This document shows positions 364-20,000 of a stretch of 20,000 nucleotides of DNA, in pieces. The notes beneath the pieces were generated by a model. The model was not told the DNA's origin, ran no database searches, and was given only the letters and a program-made list of their open reading frames with translations. Numbering within the stretch: position 1 is the stretch's first letter; the number at the start of each line of letters is the position of its first letter. The position numbers and the translations under genes are program-made. The stretch comes from Perkinsus olseni (lineage: Eukaryota): assembly GCA_013115125.1 (NCBI GenBank), contig JABANN010000093.1, positions 55,730-75,729 of the forward strand, in the 5' to 3' direction.

Positions 364-2051
364 CTAATCATCTCCGGTCGAAGTCCTGTAGATATCGGAC
401 TTAGCTGCCCCTCCCTTCACCTGGCTCATCTCCTCCTTCACCCCCTCCGCCTCCTCCCGAGCAGCCTTTACTTCATTCTCGTACTTCTTATGCAGCCCTT
501 GGCTTGCCTCCAGCTCCTGCTCCACTGCCCTTATCCGATCCAGCATCTCCCTCGTTCGCCTAGGGCAGCGCCATTGCGGAGAATAACAACCACCGCAAGG
601 ACCTACCGCGCTTCGACCGACTTCAGCTCGTCTATCTCCCTGCCTTTCACCTCCTCCAAAGCAGCCAACTTTTCCTTCAACTCGCCCACTTGCTTCTGCA
701 GCTGCCAGCAAGAGTACCGCAAGCTGCCACGGTCGGACCTCCTCACCAGCTCCTTCTCTGTCGTCTGCTCCTTCCCTTCGCGAGTCAGGTTCTCAATAAC
801 GATCTCCATGGCCACCATCCTGTCTCGGTGCCTGACTCCGCCCTGCCCTCCATCAACAGCACCAGTCCCTTACTTGTCGACATCGGCCTTCCGGCCCTCC
901 CCTTCTGCAACCGCCTCCTCCAGCTTCTCACACTCCGCTGTCAACTCGGCAATTCTCTTCGTGGATGCATGCCTTAAGTCCGCGAGCTTCAGAGAGACAC
1001 GAAATTCAGCAACTCGTGAGGGCCCCTTTCTCACAGCCTGGGCCTGCTGCGATCGCTCCTTTGCTGCTCCCTGCTTCACGGCAGCTAGCTGAGAATAGAA
1101 CCAGGATCGTGCACTCATTCTTCTGTTCTATTCTGTAGATGCACAGACGAATTAGCGATAGCGAACTCTTCCGGCATACGAGAAGAGGTACTGTATGATC
1201 TCATCATAACGAATCCTGAGTCCGCAGAGTAGCACTTACTTCAAGCATGGCCTTCTCATGGACCCCCTCAGCGTCCCGAGCCTGCTTTCGACTCTCCTCA
1301 AGTTCAGCAGCCACCAGAGAGAGTCGGCGTAGTAATCGATCAATCCTTTTGTCCCTGCAAGGCAGTGGCTACCGAGGACCGCCGTCCAAGCTCGAGGGTA
1401 CTTCTCATCGTCGGACATCCTCTTGCCCTTGTACTCCCTTAGTTGCCCCTTCAACTGCCTCACCATCGATTCCGCCTTCCCTCTCCTCTCCTGCTCCACT
1501 GCAAGCTGCTTCCGAAGGTCCATGCACTCGTTGGCTTGGGCCTGCTGCCGACGACGTTTCTCCACCTTTCGAATACCGTCATAATCACCTTCAAATTCTC
1601 TTTGTCAACTCCTGCGTCGCTCCGCCTCCTACCACCACCCCGTTTTCTACCACTACTATCCCCCAGTAGTGAGCTCGTCGATGCACAGCCAGAAACAGCA
1701 ACGCTGCTGTTCACAGACAGGCAGCAGCTGACTTCATCATCATCATCCTCAGCGCGGCCCTGCGACCCTATCGACAGCGTCCGACTCCGCAGTGGAAGGT
1801 AGGCAGCTGGGGAAGCCAACTGGAGGAAAGGAGGACGTATCAGTGGACTTGCCCAGGCACTCTACCATCGACTCCCCCTCAGAAGAGGATACTGATGACC
1901 GCCTTCGACTGTTCGATCGACTCAGTCGTTTGTAGCTGCTAGGCGGTGGAGGGAAGGCACTTGGACGAGGTATTCTCGTCAACGGCGAGCAGAGCTCTTC
2001 TAGTGGGGGAGGGGACCCCTCGGCTGGAGGCAAGGGGTGGGCTGCTGCCAT
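364..2051 (-). CDS. Multi-exon coiled-coil hypothetical protein (3' end uncertain; may continue below 364)
   Basis: ATG at 2051 (MAAAHPLPP). GT-AG introns such as 1820-1865 (46 nt) and ~560-606 join the frame-shifted ORFs. Exons encode E/K/Q/L-rich heptads (ECMDLRKQLAVEQERR, QLQKQVGELKEKLAALEE, RIRAVEQELEASQ). Confidence 0.65.
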
Positions 2052-2180
2052 CAAGACTTCTACCCCGTCACCGTTACCGCGCCCCTTAATTCACCACTAC
2101 AACGACAACAACAAGGCGTGAAATGGCAACTTCGACACGAGCATGCTGGACAGCTTCATGTATAATAATAGTACACCGGG

Positions 2181-4348
2181 CTACCATTGGGTAGCAGCAG
2201 CGGCAGCGATGCAGGTCGGGTCCTCGGTCAGGTACCTAGAGCGTTGATGATAACAACGGAGGCGACTGAAGGGCAGCCACTGACCATGGTTTGATAACTT
2301 GAAGGAACTGGAAGACCTTCTTGGCGACTTGGGAGTTGTCAGGATTCTTATCAGGATGCCACTTCACAGTGAGCTGCTTGAACGCTGTCTTCCTCGCAGC
2401 GACCTCTTCCCCAGCAAACAGGGACGCCTGCATGTCCCGCACGACCTCCACCTTGATCTCATACGCCACTCTACTAGACCAGTCATCACCCTCTAGCGGC
2501 TCTGTGAGATGCTCTGACACTGACAAGGAGGGGACGCTCATTCAATCGCAAAATCGTCGCTGTCTAGTACCTATATCCTGAGGGGGCGGAAATACCGTGC
2601 TCGGGGTTCGAACCAGGGACCTTTTCTGTTGATGGGTAAAAGGCATGCTACCAGGTGGTATGACCGGATACCCTCTATGATAGTGCTCTCGTTGGGCCAT
2701 CAAAAACTCTGCCTGCCTCTGCTTCATGTATTCTTCCCATTGACGATAGTACTCCCTCTGAGCCGCCGCGTAGGTCGCCCATGGATCCCCTGCCTCCTGC
2801 TGCTGCTGCTGCCGATGGTCGGCAGGCAGCCTCTCCTCCTCACTATTATCGTAGTAGTTATCCGCAAACCCCTCCTCCTTTAACTCATCCCTTTGCTGCC
2901 CTACCTGTCCTACTACTACTCTCTCTCTAATAGTGACAGTGGCCCTGTTAGCCTCGCCCCTCCTATACCCACCACCCTCTCTCTTACCCGTACCCCAGCT
3001 CTTCAGAAGACCCAAGTCGGGCATTCCAGCGGGGACGTCGCTGCTACCATCCCCTACGTGAAGGGGGCCTTGCTCTACTTCCAGACTGGGAGTACCCTTG
3101 CCCAGTGACGTGCCCAGGACGTGCCTAGCTTCCCCAGGGTGCGCAGAAGGATACCCTATACTACTGGCGACCTCCTCCTCCACCACAGCGACATCATCGC
3201 TCTCATCCCCCGCTCCCTGCTTCTCCCCCTCAAACTCTGAGTCAGGCTCCACGGGTATCGAGGGGGGCAGCGGCGGTAGACTGGGGTGCCAATAGGGTTG
3301 ATATCCTATCGATTCTCTCATTCTCTCCGGCGGAGCGACGCAGTTCTCCTCTACGCTGCTTTTCCCATCCTCCTCTTGCTCCTGCCTACTCTCCTCCTCC
3401 AGCGCAGCAATGAGGCCCTCCTGCGCTGATGCTGCTCTGTCCATCGCTTGCTTCGTACCGGCCATCCGCTTGCTCAGCTCGGCTGATGCCTGACACGGCG
3501 GCCGCTACAACTACCAGCAGCAGCAGCAGTGGCACAGGTCTCCCTCTCACCTCGTCCATATCCCGTAACAATGCCCTAGCCGCTGCCTTGATGGCCCCTG
3601 GAAGCAGACAGAGGTCCGATGGCTCCACCCAGACTCTCTGTCCCCTCTCCCCCAGTACGACCACCCAACACCTCCCCTCAGTCGCATCGCTCTGCTCAAC
3701 TTCACACAACGCAAAGTCCTTCCCTCCCAAGGAGAGGATGCCGCATAGATCACCCACAGGAGGCGGGGCGACGCACCTGGAGAGCTCCATAGCGGAACAG
3801 CCAGCCAACAGCTCCGTCCATCTGCCCTCGAGACCCTCCACTACTACCCTCGCCCCACGCTTGGCCTCTCGTGCCTTCACTACCCCCATTGCACAGTCCA
3901 TCAGCTGGCGCTGTAGTAGCGTATCAGCCCGGGCACTCGAACTCGCCTCCAACACTGTCGAGTCCCCGATAGGGAGCGGCGCGTCTCTGCGATCTCTAGC
4001 CTCCTGTGGCCCATCCTCGGGCGCGTCACCACTGGCCGGCCGGGCCCGAACCTCAGTCGAGTGACGAGTACCGTTGGAAGGCCTCCCTCTTCTCCGGTAA
4101 CTCTTCGTCCGCCCCTCCTCCTCCTCTTCACTACCACCATCCACTGTCCCAATACTATTACCTTGCGGCAGCAGCAGCAGCCTAGCCATCCTGAACTTCA
4201 CTCTCTCCACAAAGCCCCTCACCCCAGCCCCTGTGATGTAGTACTTGGGAGCCCTATTCCTATACCACCGCACGCACCTATAGGAGCAGATCCCCACCAC
4301 CATTAACGCCCCTATGGACGCGATGACCACTAGCAACGCATACGACAT
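2181..4348 (-). CDS. Membrane-anchored protein with a C-terminal J (DnaJ) domain
   Basis: Hydrophobic N-terminus MSYALLVVIASIGALMVVGIC followed by basic residues. Late exon reads ARKTAFKQLTVKWHPDKNPDNSQVAKKVFQFLQ (HPD motif). A final intron leads to WYLTEDPTCIAAAAATQW-stop at 2181. Confidence 0.75.
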
Positions 4349-4665: not shown

Positions 4666-5811
4666 TCACCATCGACGGTATTCTGAGAGGAGGTAGTCAC
4701 GGCAGCCCGACCGAGACCCGTCTACCTCCCCGAGAGTATTTTCCCCCGATGGAGGTTCTCCGTATTGATGTAATCCCTGACCCTATTGGGCACGGCATTC
4801 CCTTGCACCCTGCTGCTGTTATCCTCAGCATAGCTGCCATGCTCCAACAACACTCTACAGCTCTCCCGAGCGTCCATTGCAATCGCCGAGTCAGCCCCCG
4901 ATCCGGGCGGATAGTCCTCACTGAGGAGACCAACCTCAACACGCCACCAACAGCAGAGCCCTCACCTGTATCTTGTCCGAGCGTCGAAGTGGAAGCCCAT
5001 GGTACTGGTAGTGGGCTTCGGTATCGGGGGCTTGCACCTCTCCCCGACGCACTCAATACCTCCTGAGTTCCTCTGCCAGTCAGGATAGAACTCGTGAGAG
5101 GCCGGCTGCTTGTACCTGCACGAATCACCCTACAATGCTGTGCAATAGTGCAGCGAGGTTACAGGAGGTAAAGTTCCCCATCAACATGGGTCTGGACGGC
5201 AGGCCTCAGCATGGCCTCCTTCCGAGCTCCAGGGTACACCACGTAGTCGTCCGAATATCGACTCCGGCCCTTCTGCTGAGGACTAGGGCCATTGGCCGGA
5301 CCTACACAGCTCGATAGGTGATAGTAGGTAAAGGGGGACTCCGCCCTTACTCGAGGCAGGCCGGAAGGTCTTTGCCAACTCCCTGTTGATGACCGCACCT
5401 TGCAGGGGCAGTGGTTGGTACTGTTCCATATACGCGGACATCTCCCGCGGCCAGAACGGCGCCCTGTTGGGCTTGAACTCCCCTGAGCGATGGTCAGAGC
5501 CACAGGATCAGACCCAACAGCACTTACCTCGCCGGGCCATGTCCTCATCGATCTTGTGAATGCAGGACATACTCTGGCTGCTGCTGCTCGCGCCACTGGA
5601 AGACTTACCCACCACCACGGACTTGTCCACGAAAGTCTCCTTAGTAGTGGTACTGTAGAAAAGCTTACGTACATCTTCAGGGGAGAAGGAACTTTGTATC
5701 TGCACGATAATACCTCAGCCGGGAATCGAACCCGGGACCTATCAGTGTCACCTGTGGTGTAAAGCCCTGGGATGCCATCAGCTTCTTCTTAGCATCGTGT
5801 ACAGCCGGCAT
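4666..5811 (-). CDS. SAXO/STOP-like microtubule-inner-protein-type repeat protein (3' end uncertain)
   Basis: ATG at 5811 (MPAVHDAKKKLMASQGFTPQ|IQSSF). Spliced product has repeated Mn-like motifs STTTKETF, SAYMEQYQP, SRYSDDYVVYP and FDARTRYSEDYPP. Family assignment is by motif resemblance only. Confidence 0.5.
5711..5748 (-). pseudogene. tRNA 3' half fragment (Val-like) inside a 52-nt spliceosomal intron (5700-5751)
   Basis: Minus strand ACACTGATAGGTC-CCGGG-TTCGATT-CCCGG-CTGAGGT-A: perfect T-stem/TPsiC loop, variable loop ending GGTC, 7-nt acceptor 3' strand and discriminator A. No 5' half or D-arm seen nearby. The Val call rests only on the (G)ACAC at the break. Confidence 0.75.
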
Positions 5812-6096: not shown

Positions 6097-7718
6097 TCAG
6101 GTAGACGGCGGGTGGGGTACCAGGCACGACACTATAACCGTGATGTCATCAATGACAACACCTCCACCTTGATCGAGCCACCTCCGACAGGCCCTCTTCG
6201 CCAGGACATCAGCAGCCGTCTGGGCCTGCCTACTACTAGTGAGGATAGTACTCACTATACCAACAGCCTCCTGTGTCGAGATGAACTCCCATACACCATC
6301 ACTACAGACAAGAAGGAAGGGATCCCCGGGCCGCCACTCTGAACTAGTGGACATTGAGGAAGACGAGGAACTATCTCTCTCAGGATCTCTCAATACAGCC
6401 TTCCTCCTAGTGTCCGGTATTGGGACGACCCCCGCCCTGTAGTAGGCTATTAGATCCCCCATCGCTCGGGACATGTTTAAACCAGGGTAGCTTTGACCCT
6501 TCACGTACACTCTATAGCTACAATGGCCGTCGAAGCCGACCTGAAGGGGGGCAGCAGCCACAGCACCCCCACCACCATGGATGGACCCCCGGCACTACCC
6601 TTCCGCCAGATTTCTCGATCCTCGCCTTCTCCTCTGGCCTGTCCGGGCGGTGGTCGGTGGTCATCTCCACGCCCTTTGGGGTAGAAGGCAAGGCTAGGAC
6701 TGCCCTCGAGTCCCCAACCCATGCTGCTGTGACGGTGTCCGTCTTGTGACTATGCAGGAGACGGCATCTCCGAGGGATGGACGATGAGGGCGATTAGGGC
6801 TCACCAGTGGATGCATAAGGTGGCTGTACTCCCACTGCAGGCCGCGTCTACTTCACCGGACTTTGTTGCGGCCTAACACTTTCATACCACACCAATCGCA
6901 ACTCATTATTACCTCTAAGCGCTGCTGTACCGCAGGAAACCATGCCCTCAATGCCCTGTCAAGCCCTCGTTCCTCACTAATGGCATCCTTAGGTTCGTTA
7001 AGAATCAACTAAGCAAGAGAAGTCCAGTGCAGCACAGTGGTTCTATCCCTCACTTTCACCAAGCTCTCCTTGACGAAATTGGAGACATCATGCCCGTGCA
7101 GACCATGACCGTCAAAAACCCCGTAGACTGTGAAGCTATCATCAACATTCATAATCAGAAAGGAATCCTGAGGTTGATTATGGTCAATCTCGAGTAGCTC
7201 CCGCCGATCGCCATTACCTGATTCGGGCTGTCGGGCTTCAACCCCTTCTTGCAGGCATAACCGATCCCACTGTCCCTCAGCGTCCTCTCCGGTACCCCAC
7301 CCAGCAGTAGAATATCCTTATCCTTATAAGTCTCCCTATGATGGAGATCAGAATCAGTAGTAGAGGCAATAGACCATCGCCGCCCCCGTGCAGCATCATC
7401 TAGTGAGTGGGAGCCCTTTGACATTCCCGTGGCCACGATGTCGTCAACTCCCACTGCCTCCACCCCTCGTGAGCAGGAAGAAGACGACCGCGAAGAAAGG
7501 ATAGATCGTATTTTGGAGGGCCTACAGAGGGGGTAGTGCTTATCAAGGCTCATCCCTAGAACCCTTTACTTTTTGTCCTCCCCTACTGCCCCCGGTTCCG
7601 TTATGGAAAGCCTCCTCCGTCGAGCCGCGTCCGAGGAGGTCAGACTAGGCCTGCGTATTTTCCGCAGGATGGAGGTACTCGAGGACGATGAGGAAGCCGT
7701 GGAAGGTCCGCAACCCAT
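6097..7718 (-). CDS. PPM/PP2C-family protein phosphatase with N-terminal MGC acylation motif
   Basis: Spliced motifs KKGLKPDSPNQ|DSF, YGVFDGHG, SGSTAT, AWVGDSRAV, TTDHRP, GLNMSRAMGD, LLVCSDGVWEF and DDITVIV. Starts MGCGPST at 7718. Confidence 0.93.
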
Positions 7719-7883
7719 AGTAAAATCACTCCAAAGGTTCGCTGCCTCTGATCTGCGTCGTATTGCGCAGACCGTGAGAGTTTTAGCACAGGGAAAAACG
7801 TCTTTTTCGGACAGGATCACGCAGAGATAATCGTCCTGGATTTACCATCGTTTACTACGAGATCTTGGCAGTTTTTAGTGGCG
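7719..7883. promoter_or_regulatory. Short divergent (head-to-head) intergenic region, candidate bidirectional promoter
   Basis: 165 nt between the PP2C ATG (minus, 7718) and the plus-strand ATG at 7884. Inferred from position only. Confidence 0.4.
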
Positions 7884-9157: not shown

Positions 9158-11967
9158 ATGAGCTTGCATGGATCTTCCTTCGAAGATGGTTTCGTCCTTT
9201 CAAGCTTTGTGGTTGTCCCCTTCATGATTCCCTGGTCGTCCGGAGGCGCTTCGGAGGCAATAGTACCGCTAGATGAAGGAGGGACGGACCAGCGAAGGCG
9301 AGGGTTGGACTTTTGGGAGCCATCGGGATGGTCAGGCGGTCAACTTGTAGTTGTTGATGACGACACTAGAGGCCGTGGACAGGTAATAGAGAACTCTTGG
9401 TGGCCCGGGTGGTGTAGGCGGATATTGATTGATAGGGCGTGGGTTCGATTCCAACCAGGCATATTTTAATACTTGGCTACTCTCAGATGGCGGTCTACGG
9501 TACCGTCGGTCCAGCGGCCGGTGGTAGAGGAAGGGCAGCTCACAAACGATGGCGTCTTCACCTAGGCCCAAAGGAGGAGGTAATATCATTCGGCGCGTTT
9601 TGTGTTGAGCAAGGGTCGACCTAAGATACCCTACCGGCCAAGGCCATTGGTGGACCTCCCAGTGGGCTTCACGATATCGGAGGTGGATCAGCTCATGCGG
9701 GAGATCAGGCTAGAGGACTTACGCAGCAAAGTGGCCAATAAGGAGTTGGAGTTGGCCGATGAGGATGTAGCAGTATCAGCGGCAATTTTATGCTACTTTC
9801 GTGACTACAATAGGTCCGTGCCCCTTCCCCACCCCCAGTCTACAACAGCCTAGGACAGAAGATTAATACTAGGGAGTTGAGGGTGAAGCATCAGATGCAT
9901 GATGAGCTTAATAGACTATGCCATTACATGATCAAAACGGTGAGATCTCCTGAGGCCCACCCGCTGGCCTCACCCGACCCCGGCAGGTTCCCAACTATGT
10001 CCCGCCACCAGAGTACAGGCCGCCGAAGTACGTTCAGAAGGTCCTAGTACCGGTCAAAAGGTGAGATCAGACTTCTACTGTCGCCCAAAAAATTTTCATT
10101 TCCTTTGGTCTTCTCACAAGATACCCAACCGAGAACTTCATGGGGATCCTCATCGGTCCGAGGGGGTGCAACCACCGCCTTTTGAAGGAGATCTTAGACT
10201 GTGACATAACCCTTAGGGGAAGGGGTAGGGTAGAATGATGGGAAGGGACAGGCACGCACCGATCTTTTAGGGACTGGCAAACATTCGGATTTTGTGAGTC
10301 AACAGCAGTCGGCGTCTTCTGGTGGGGACAGATCGTCAACGATGGCGTCATGGCAGGCGGAGGAGGATGCCAGTCTGCCGTTGCACGTTCATATTAGGTG
10401 GGGATAATAATACTCATACCACACCATTCTCAGTTTTATTGTAACCATTGTATGTGCCGTAACAGCGACAGCAGCAGCCGCAGCCGCAGCCGCAGCCGCG
10501 GGGTAGACCGGTTCTAGGTGTGCTTACCATAGGGGGCCGTCTGAGAGCCTAGAGAGATCGTTAGGGTGTTAGAACGAGCGCGGAGGTCCTGAATGAGTAT
10601 CCTGAATGAGCATGGCCTGGAGGGCCCGTGGAAGTGTGGGCTCGCATAGGTTTAATTAATTGATGCCACTCTCCTCCCTTCAACCATCAACACTCATGGC
10701 CCCCCCTCCCACCCCCACTCATGCTGCTGTCGCTACTACTACTACTACCACTACCACTATTGCTCTTCCGCACGTAGAGGGGCCATCGTGAGCTTTTCGT
10801 CCATTTCAGTGGTGACGACGAGGACCGGGTCCAGGAGGCGGTGGAGTTCATCAAGAAATGCCTCACCCCGGGCAGTCGAGAGTAGCCGCTGATGGTCATC
10901 TGTCCTCGCCAGCACCCCCACGCCAGGTACGAGGCCCTTCAGTCGCGTGGGAGGGATACTTTGGCTGTCATCAATGGCACTGTCGGCATCGGGTCGAACT
11001 ACCATCAACGCCAGCTGCGAGTACTAGAGGCAGATGGACTAGATGAGATCGAACGGTGGAGGGCGGTGGCGAGGTAATGAGGAGATGGTGGTGATGATGA
11101 TGGCGATGGTGATTTTGGTGTCCCAGGCATGTGCGGTGTGAGATCTGTGGTGACCGGGGCCATCCGACGGTCGATTGCCCCCAGAGGAGGATGCCTAGCC
11201 ATGATGAGCTGATGGAAGATTGGCGACTCGATAAGGAGTAGGTCGAAGGGGTTTCTGAACCCTTTGGAGGGGTCTAACATCAGATACCATGATCTCATGG
11301 CCAGCGTTTCCCCCGAGGCCTCGCCGTCCTCGGACGGCCAACCTCCTTCCAAACGGCAGCACACGTCGTCGCAGCAGGAGGAGGAGATTCTGTCTCCACC
11401 GGAACTGCCACCGATGCCTCTGCCACCACCGATGGAGGCCACACCGAAGGTGTTAGCTCCCCTCCCACCGATGCAGCAGCAGCCGAGCAGCAGCAGCCCT
11501 TCGGAGAGCCCGGCTAACAGTAGTTCGAACGAGGAGACATCAACAGGGCAGCCGACTACACCCCATGTCCCGAGACGTAGTACCCGAAGGCTGGAGATGA
11601 TCCATTGATGTCCTTGTTGCTGTCAGCTCTTGCCGCTCGGCCACGAAGGCAGCGGCGTCCATTGACCCCCCATCCTCTTCGTACCATCCCAATGGACCCG
11701 ACACCTCCTCCGGGCGGCCCTTACCATGCCGAGGGACCCTATCCCTTCGACAACATGGGCTATACTACTCGTAAGCGGCTAGGACGGGCGATCCTCCCTG
11801 CTCACTGGACCGTGTCAGATCCTCCCCCGCATGGCTACGCTGGTCGAGGGGTGTTCCCTCCGGCGCCGGTGCCCCCAGTGAGGCCTCTGCCGCCCTTTCG
11901 TCAGCCTTACGGCGGCCCACCTCCCCCTGGTTACGGCGGTTATTACGGAGCAGAGGGGCACTACTAG
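9158..11967 (+). CDS. SF1: Splicing factor 1 / branchpoint-bridging protein (KH-QUA2, zinc knuckle, Pro-rich tail); start 9158 or 9225
   Basis: Spliced: VDLPVGFTISEVDQLMREIRLEDL...VRAPSPPPVYNSLGQKINTRE (helix-hairpin/SPSP region); YPTENFMGILIGPRGCNHR (KH GxxG); LPLHVHIS|GDDEDRVQEA; TLAVINGT (QUA2); CEICGDRGHPTVDC (CCHC); DKEYHDLMAS; Pro/Gly/Tyr C-terminus. Confidence 0.92.
10476..10499 (+). repeat. (AGCCGC)4 hexamer repeat in the long SF1 intron
   Basis: Directly visible. Reads SRSRSRSR in the SF1 frame if the AG at 10464-10465 is used. Confidence 0.85.

Positions 11968-19927: not shown

Positions 19928-19999
<72 letters not shown>
19928..19999. repeat. (TGA)24 microsatellite, probably intronic
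   Basis: 72 nt perfect trinucleotide run. On the minus strand it lies upstream of an AG acceptor at 19896-19897. Confidence 0.95.

Positions 20000-20000
<1 letters not shown>

Follow-up and report, generated by a model that had tools for sequence, protein, structure and literature searches.

The window analysed here is a 20,000-nt stretch of the Perkinsus olseni genome. Its minus strand carries a gene whose first intron became the centre of our interest, because much of that intron reads like the 3′ end of a tRNA gene. Two further elements of the same kind lie elsewhere in the window, and Table 1 collects the coordinates.

Table 1. Host gene, first intron and tRNA-like elements, in window coordinates
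Feature	Position	Strand	Basis
Host gene, 8 coding exons, 323 aa	4513..5811	-	Spliced joints and translation; stop from summed exon and intron lengths
Coding exon 1, ATG at 5811, 20 codons	5752..5811	-	Frame test; record P0007 shares start and junction
First intron, 52 nt, GT-AG, after codon 20	5700..5751	-	Sequence, spliced joint 5699/5752 and frame test
tRNA-3′-end-like element, tRNA positions about 36-73	5711..5748	-	Sequence; alignment to real 3′ halves
AGGTC, variable-loop positions 44-48, common to most family members	5736..5740	-	Family alignment
Canonical B-box GGTTCGATTCC, positions 52-62	5722..5732	-	Sequence; family profile
3′ tail GGTA-TTA, positions 70-76, fitting the family's fixed-spacing tail G-G-Y-R-T-T-T	5708..5714	-	Family alignment
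Second family member, sense, inside a confirmed 104-nt intron (joint 9379/9484)	9431..9468	+	Alignment and joint in RNA run X1
Third family member, with its own AG|GT at 2621/2620	2590..2622	-	Alignment; possible donor of a 43-nt intron

The host gene and its first intron

Joined across its exons, the host protein is identical to the start of a named Perkinsus olseni record, P0007, at 312 of 315 residues. It is a member of a conserved family without a name (43 homologue clusters), for which a Pfam scan matched no family; the Atlas assignment, an axonemal SAXO-like protein (0.92-0.93), we treat as a lead only. The junction of intron 1 lies inside a conserved motif of the protein and leaves zero extra residues there. 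Metagenomic homologues of the gene turned up at 2 loci among 121 candidate stretches, both intron-less, and since these two are distant and lack all seven introns they are uninformative on the gain of intron 1. The upstream neighbour, at 6097-7840 on the minus strand, shows phosphatase-like motifs in its ORF translations and is presumably a PP2C-type protein phosphatase.

The original prediction was of a 52-nt GT-AG intron whose removal joins the exons in frame, and both the match to P0007 and spliced RNA bear this out. On the minus strand the 52-mer from 5751 to 5700 begins with GT and ends with AG. A single public run, X1, is listed for the region. It consists of contigs, and its RNA type is a guess; it behaves like spliced RNA, with 15 of its 19 joints shown and GT-AG ends in all 15. 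The predicted junction is there: a 1,158-nt X1 contig carries the joint 5699/5752, skipping exactly 5700-5751 (52 nt, CT..AC ends) and six further introns. Removing all seven gives a frame of 323 amino acids; retaining intron 1 brings a stop at 44. With GT-AG ends and removal from mRNA, the two marks of a U2-type spliceosomal intron, and at a length that is ordinary for the locus (14 of the 15 listed introns measure 43-52 nt), 5700..5751 is an ordinary spliceosomal mini-intron. It folds no better than its shuffles (z -0.04).

Two X1 contigs merit separate mention. The spliced host-gene contig has 83 bases aligned before its first joint and starts at about 5834 (minus strand), near an AG upstream of the ATG, as it would if that AG were a trans-splice acceptor. 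In another contig the match to the element ends at 5718 and gives way to a different T-rich, CAG-ending sequence; this is probably an unspliced element intron of another locus.

A dispersed family resembling tRNA-gene ends

Read in the sense of the host gene, the element consists of AGGTC, a five-pair T-arm with the B-box, seven acceptor-like bases, an A and TTAT, and its tail doubles as the pyrimidine stretch ahead of the 3′ splice site. Its T-arm is closed by five Watson-Crick pairs and includes a canonical B-box, far beyond chance in the 22-mer test described below. The claim of an undecayed tRNA 3′ half was not confirmed. Among the 76 distinct real tRNA 3′ halves we collected, an incomplete set, the best match is Pro-CGG, with 22 of 22 positions across the T-arm and only 26 of 30 over positions 44-73. 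A gapped alignment to Val-CAC reaches back to ACAC in the anticodon loop; without the gap, position 37 of the element is a C rather than a purine. The acceptor strand, searched as CYGAGGYR, has 26 matches, 19 of them of Lys-TTT type with a different T-arm, and our element is a singleton. Nor could the expected parent tRNA be found, as a gene of the form RCCTCAG...CTGAGGY has no match in the whole assembly. To judge from these alignments the element is a mosaic-looking motif rather than an undecayed copy. ARAGORN found no tRNA in the window, Rfam returned nothing at its gathering score (the best hit, mascRNA, scored 25.1 against a cut-off of 42.5 bits), and a phage collection gave only weak tRNA-Met T-arm matches (E 0.3).

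Other copies, which the original prediction had suggested looking for, are plentiful. The 22-mer at no more than two mismatches has 215 matches in the genome (reversed control, 0), and 9 of the first 30 loci that it matched are whole tRNAs. The core GGTC-N4-GTTCRA-NN-C has 1,383 matches against 23 for its control, and these copies mostly lack a tRNA 5′ half; we call such copies orphans. On a 600-kb sample (five long contigs, picked for length and for their presence in earlier match lists) a weight matrix found 59 sites, where shuffles gave 1-3, and counted 52 orphans against 8 tRNAs called by ARAGORN. The sample is 1.3- to 2.5-fold richer in sites than the genome, so the family should total roughly 1,100-3,000. 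The element thus belongs to a dispersed family whose sequence resembles the part of a tRNA gene that runs from variable loop to terminator.

Density varies strongly between contigs (p 3e-5), from 3 orphans in 160 kb of contig C1 to 27 in 200 kb of C1103, where six, on both strands, lie within about 1.7 kb (80,210-81,833). The nearest other orphan to ours agrees at 28 of 35 positions, and 2 of 136 copies reach 32 of 35; a search with a 181-nt stretch found only itself. One subfamily shares the exact 14-mer GTAATCGRAAGGTC, with a Thr-like anticodon-loop end, in 31 places. GTGG or AA often stands just before it, its GTAA is a likely 5′ splice site in several copies, and at positions 66-73 the copies are unrelated (pairwise identity 0.25-0.30). 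The 14-mer occurs in none of the 76 real 3′ halves, and the subfamily motif GTAATCG has no match in prokaryote genomes. Separately, the genome holds many multi-copy and decayed tRNA genes, with tandem and decayed copies bearing altered anticodons at five loci (L052, L036, L039, L154 and L160); among these are a Thr-type body as Ser-TGA, a Val body with ATC and an Arg body with TAC or an internal duplication.

Within the window, the AG|GT of the third element could serve a possible 43-nt intron at 2578-2620 (minus strand). P0007 reads through this stretch as coding; an X1 contig alignment stops at 2620 with 2 letters left over, a weak hint of splicing.

What the orphans keep and how they may be read

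Across the 95 orphans from all loci, partly chosen by our own search patterns, conservation is seen at positions 61-62 and 70-76 but not at 66-69. For an unbiased set we took 29 orphans in the 600 kb, found with a pattern blind 3′ of A58; chance would give 2.65, and none of the 29 was left out. Of these, 26 retain C61, 24 G52 and 23 C62. In 17 the tail motif YR..T has precisely the family offset, with no case shifted by one base either way, and positions 66-69 are near random. The T-stem fares poorly: its outer pairs, three per site, are intact in 41 of 87 cells, all five pairs in 4 of 29 orphans, and all five as Watson-Crick pairs in one. The perfect T-stem of our copy is the exception within its family. 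For 46 sites selected from this sample in another way, outer pairing stood at shuffle level, as against 96-100% T-stem pairing in real tRNA 3′ halves; G49 is accompanied by C65 in 49 of 53 such halves, compared with 11 of 40 orphans. Orphans match real tRNA parents at positions 49-73 no better than column-shuffled orphans do.

We simulated decay from 18 parent families or from a single master, with uniform rates and with present-day parents from the incomplete tRNA set. At d 0.4-0.5, the depth that gives the observed stem loss, C61 survives at 0.51-0.61 and G52 at 0.39-0.60 across both models (binomial p 7e-4 for the observed retention of C61), and the single-master version fails at positions 66-69. 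Positions 63-64 in 136 copies read CG in 44, CA in 27 and TG in 20, the signature of CpG decay, so part of the stem loss is explained without selection.

The reading we prefer, and to which we would give about an even chance, is that the family consists of ETC-like extended B-box sites, derived from tRNA-gene ends, which fill introns about 45-52 nt long. The orphans would descend from the 3′ ends of tRNA genes and would have been retained as DNA sites for the tauB half of TFIIIC, with an extended B-box and no A-box. Positions read by protein would stay; positions that matter only for RNA folding, and the entire 5′ half, would drift off. The upstream edge of the footprint would be why the element starts near the anticodon loop, and the sense T-run could also act as a pyrimidine tract, which would favour sense copies where introns are tiny. 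At 30-40 bp, a site is bound to fill an intron of 45-52 nt, and so the appearance of an intron made of a tRNA half may come largely from intron size. By analogy with known sites, they would likely mark chromatin, as boundaries or for positioning, with Pol III transcription playing no part.

Published work on TFIIIC offers several points of contact. In the available text of PMC11724288, the tauB-DNA model covers +37 to +76. It has contacts near 44-47, positions that reportedly affect how TFIIIC binds, and others downstream of the B-box, which are conserved at ETC loci. What the orphans conserve lies within this span, and family and span share the same end point. The ETC consensus in the available text of PMC3395662 has a 10-base 3′ extension, with which the 70-76 tail agrees when compared by position rather than letter by letter. 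The upstream 9-base extension GTAATCGRA, present in 31 places, is left unexplained by the published contacts. The genome does encode the B-box-binding subunit, a tau138/TFIIIC220 homologue: record P0009 carries PF04182 and PF24101 above cut-off, and a borderline genome match (22.1 bits) is an exon on contig C2679 that belongs to P0009. The element at 5711..5748 has a B-box consensus with no tRNA gene around it, as ETC sites do. Most likely, then, the element works like an extended B-box. Since the family retains the letters read by TFIIIC but for the most part not the pairing that a tRNA requires, its members are better taken as probable landing sites for protein, or as relics, than as halves of tRNAs. 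The original prediction had offered a lone TFIIIC B-box site among its options; this fits best of those offered, except that in a family of more than 1,000 sites it is anything but lone.

A possible but less probable explanation is that the elements are neutral debris, dead tRNA-gene 3′ ends or 5′-truncated copies of pre-tRNAs, strewn over non-coding DNA and spliced out with whatever host intron they lie in. The orphans end in a T-run, not CCA. The multi-copy and decayed tRNA genes already mentioned, including some decayed full-length copies, would supply such debris, the CpG-type changes at 63-64 are what decay would leave, and positions universal to tRNAs would stay recognisable longest, 3′ halves being easier to detect in any case. 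Uniform decay, however, cannot yield C61 at 0.90 together with 47% outer pairing. G52 at 0.83 and C62 at 0.79 in the orphans also exceed the values of about 0.63 and 0.62 in parents at d 0.05, there is no near-identical recent orphan of a real tRNA (26 of 30 is the best among 95), and the tail keeps a fixed spacing.

Introns raise a different question, namely whether the elements made them. An intron gain, in which a sense tRNA-derived insert in an exon turned into an intron, its GT donor and T-rich tract either brought along or recruited, strikes us as unlikely, though it is compatible with later retention as a B-box. A strict layout of exon AG, GTR donor, element and YAG has 76 matches with the element in sense and 58 with it in antisense, where chance predicts 22 for either orientation. 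The 28 sense cases fetched resemble genuine introns: their acceptor score is 6.5 against 3.3, though part of it comes from the element's own T-run, and an open frame runs across 27 of them. For the first 20 antisense cases fetched the score, 3.4 against 3.0 (p 0.27), is no better than random, with 14 open frames. From these layouts, tiny introns probably favour the sense orientation. Yet the sense excess is only about 54 cases among 1,383 cores. In the 600-kb sample plus the window, predicted short introns take in 18 of 49 sites in the sense orientation and 9 in antisense (random positions, 8%), leaving 31 outside those of the sense kind; the family reaches beyond sense introns, and the orientation argument is a modest one. 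(A classifier that called the host strand by the splice motifs on either side got only 6 of 9 check points right, and we discarded its split of 16 sense to 15 antisense.)

At the locus itself, intron 1 splits a conserved motif and leaves no residues behind, which speaks for a gain, and the third element may have its donor in an AG|GT of its own. The CAG at both ends of the 52-nt intron, which the original prediction had taken as a sign of gain, is present, and the 104-nt element intron has it too. But CAG is also ordinary splice consensus, found at both ends in 3 of 15 confirmed introns, two of them with an element. Against a gain stand further the lack of any family of sequence-similar introns, the rarity of repeats beyond the splice consensus (a 4-base repeat in 2 of 28 sense element introns), and the ordinary length of 52 nt. 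A broader version, to our minds just as doubtful, has a TFIIIC array of 1-3 thousand sites arising from tRNA-gene 3′ ends, with sense copies that landed in exons tolerated as introns; the element's G-rich start and T-run would serve as splice signals, and intron 1 would be one such birth.

In split and permuted tRNA genes the break lies close to the anticodon loop, and mascRNA and menRNA are built of a T-arm and an acceptor strand. The element resembles the former in its break and the latter (Rfam RF01684) in its parts, and the original prediction had accordingly offered a split or splicing-released tRNA half. Despite the perfect T-arm of our copy, and although 6 of the last 7 bases of the exon could pair with the acceptor strand (E 0.036 in the Rfam mascRNA alignment), a functional RNA of either kind, be it the 3′ half of a split tRNA or a fragment or mascRNA-like hairpin freed by splicing, is very unlikely: the assembly has no parent gene, partner halves are missing (0 orphan 5′ halves against 22 3′ halves at an identity of at least 21/26 in 600 kb, and 5 against 34 at at least 20, in counts where 3′ halves are easier to detect), T-stem pairing, perfect in our copy, is not kept across the family, and the Rfam score is far under its cut-off. 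A mascRNA-like mini-tRNA made of exon end and intron was also tried and rejected, mean pairing over 33 elements being 2.5 against 2.9 in shuffles, with a lone 6; the best upstream acceptor pairing over the 95 orphans was 5.4 against 5.5.

Relatives of the family and the rest of the window

Pseudogenes of tRNAs and tRNA-derived SINEs are tRNA-like, dispersed and T-rich at the 3′ end. The Perkinsus family has all three traits in common with both but differs in having no A-box half, no shared body or tail, and no uniform divergence from one master; we found no upstream or downstream sequence common to its copies. The closer likeness is to ETC sites in S. cerevisiae, COC sites in S. pombe and the extra-TFIIIC sites of C. 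elegans and human. Common to these and the Perkinsus family are a B-box that lacks any recognisable tRNA 5′ half, many copies and, going by position, a conserved extension on the 3′ side with fixed spacing, as far as the available text of PMC3395662, PMC12409998 and PMC6950938 describes them; the human sites number more than 1,800 (PMC12409998), and those of C. elegans are over-represented in introns and repeats (PMC6950938). Unlike these, the Perkinsus family also keeps the variable loop and the T-run, is dense for a 40-Mb genome, and has single sites that fill whole spliceosomal mini-introns. Measured TFIIIC occupancy is the defining feature of ETC, COC and extra-TFIIIC sites, and by its sequence the Perkinsus family is a candidate for the ETC class.

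Introners, as described in the main text of PMC9860276, where the words Perkinsus, tRNA and SINE do not occur, are likewise a repeated type of sequence taking up whole short introns at unrelated places. The Perkinsus copies, by contrast, are not highly similar end to end and mostly are not whole introns, no inverted ends were seen, and the end repeat at intron 1 is the CAG consensus only; some introner families, according to the same text, have neither target-site duplications nor terminal inverted repeats. Among open papers we found none that covers both TFIIIC and Perkinsus, and none that links B-box, TFIIIC, insulator and apicomplexans. Titles and the beginnings of abstracts gave no paper on such elements in Perkinsus, although genome papers or their supplements could mention them.

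The intron at 5700..5751 is by itself one ordinary member of this family, and the interest lies in the whole. If TFIIIC is bound, there would be an ETC-like array in a close relative of the dinoflagellates, with more than 1,000 natural variants of the tauB site and dense enough to map the extended specificity of tauB; it would also test whether TFIIIC organises a compact, intron-rich genome. If intron gain holds as well, tRNA-gene ends would join transposons as sources of introns. And should the array of exon-landed copies be real, tRNA-gene ends would play a double part, giving rise to new spliceosomal introns and organising chromatin from within mini-introns.

Two other features of the window are worth recording. 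Between 13400 and 17900 similar blocks lie in tandem, with fragments reading 'ELEALESVY ... ITLPPGYP', which we take to be RWD-like, and 'KHHGLEELF', which we take to be kinase-like; their likeness suggests duplicated genes. At the end of the contig, from 19930 to 20000, there is a long run of ATG/CAT trinucleotides.
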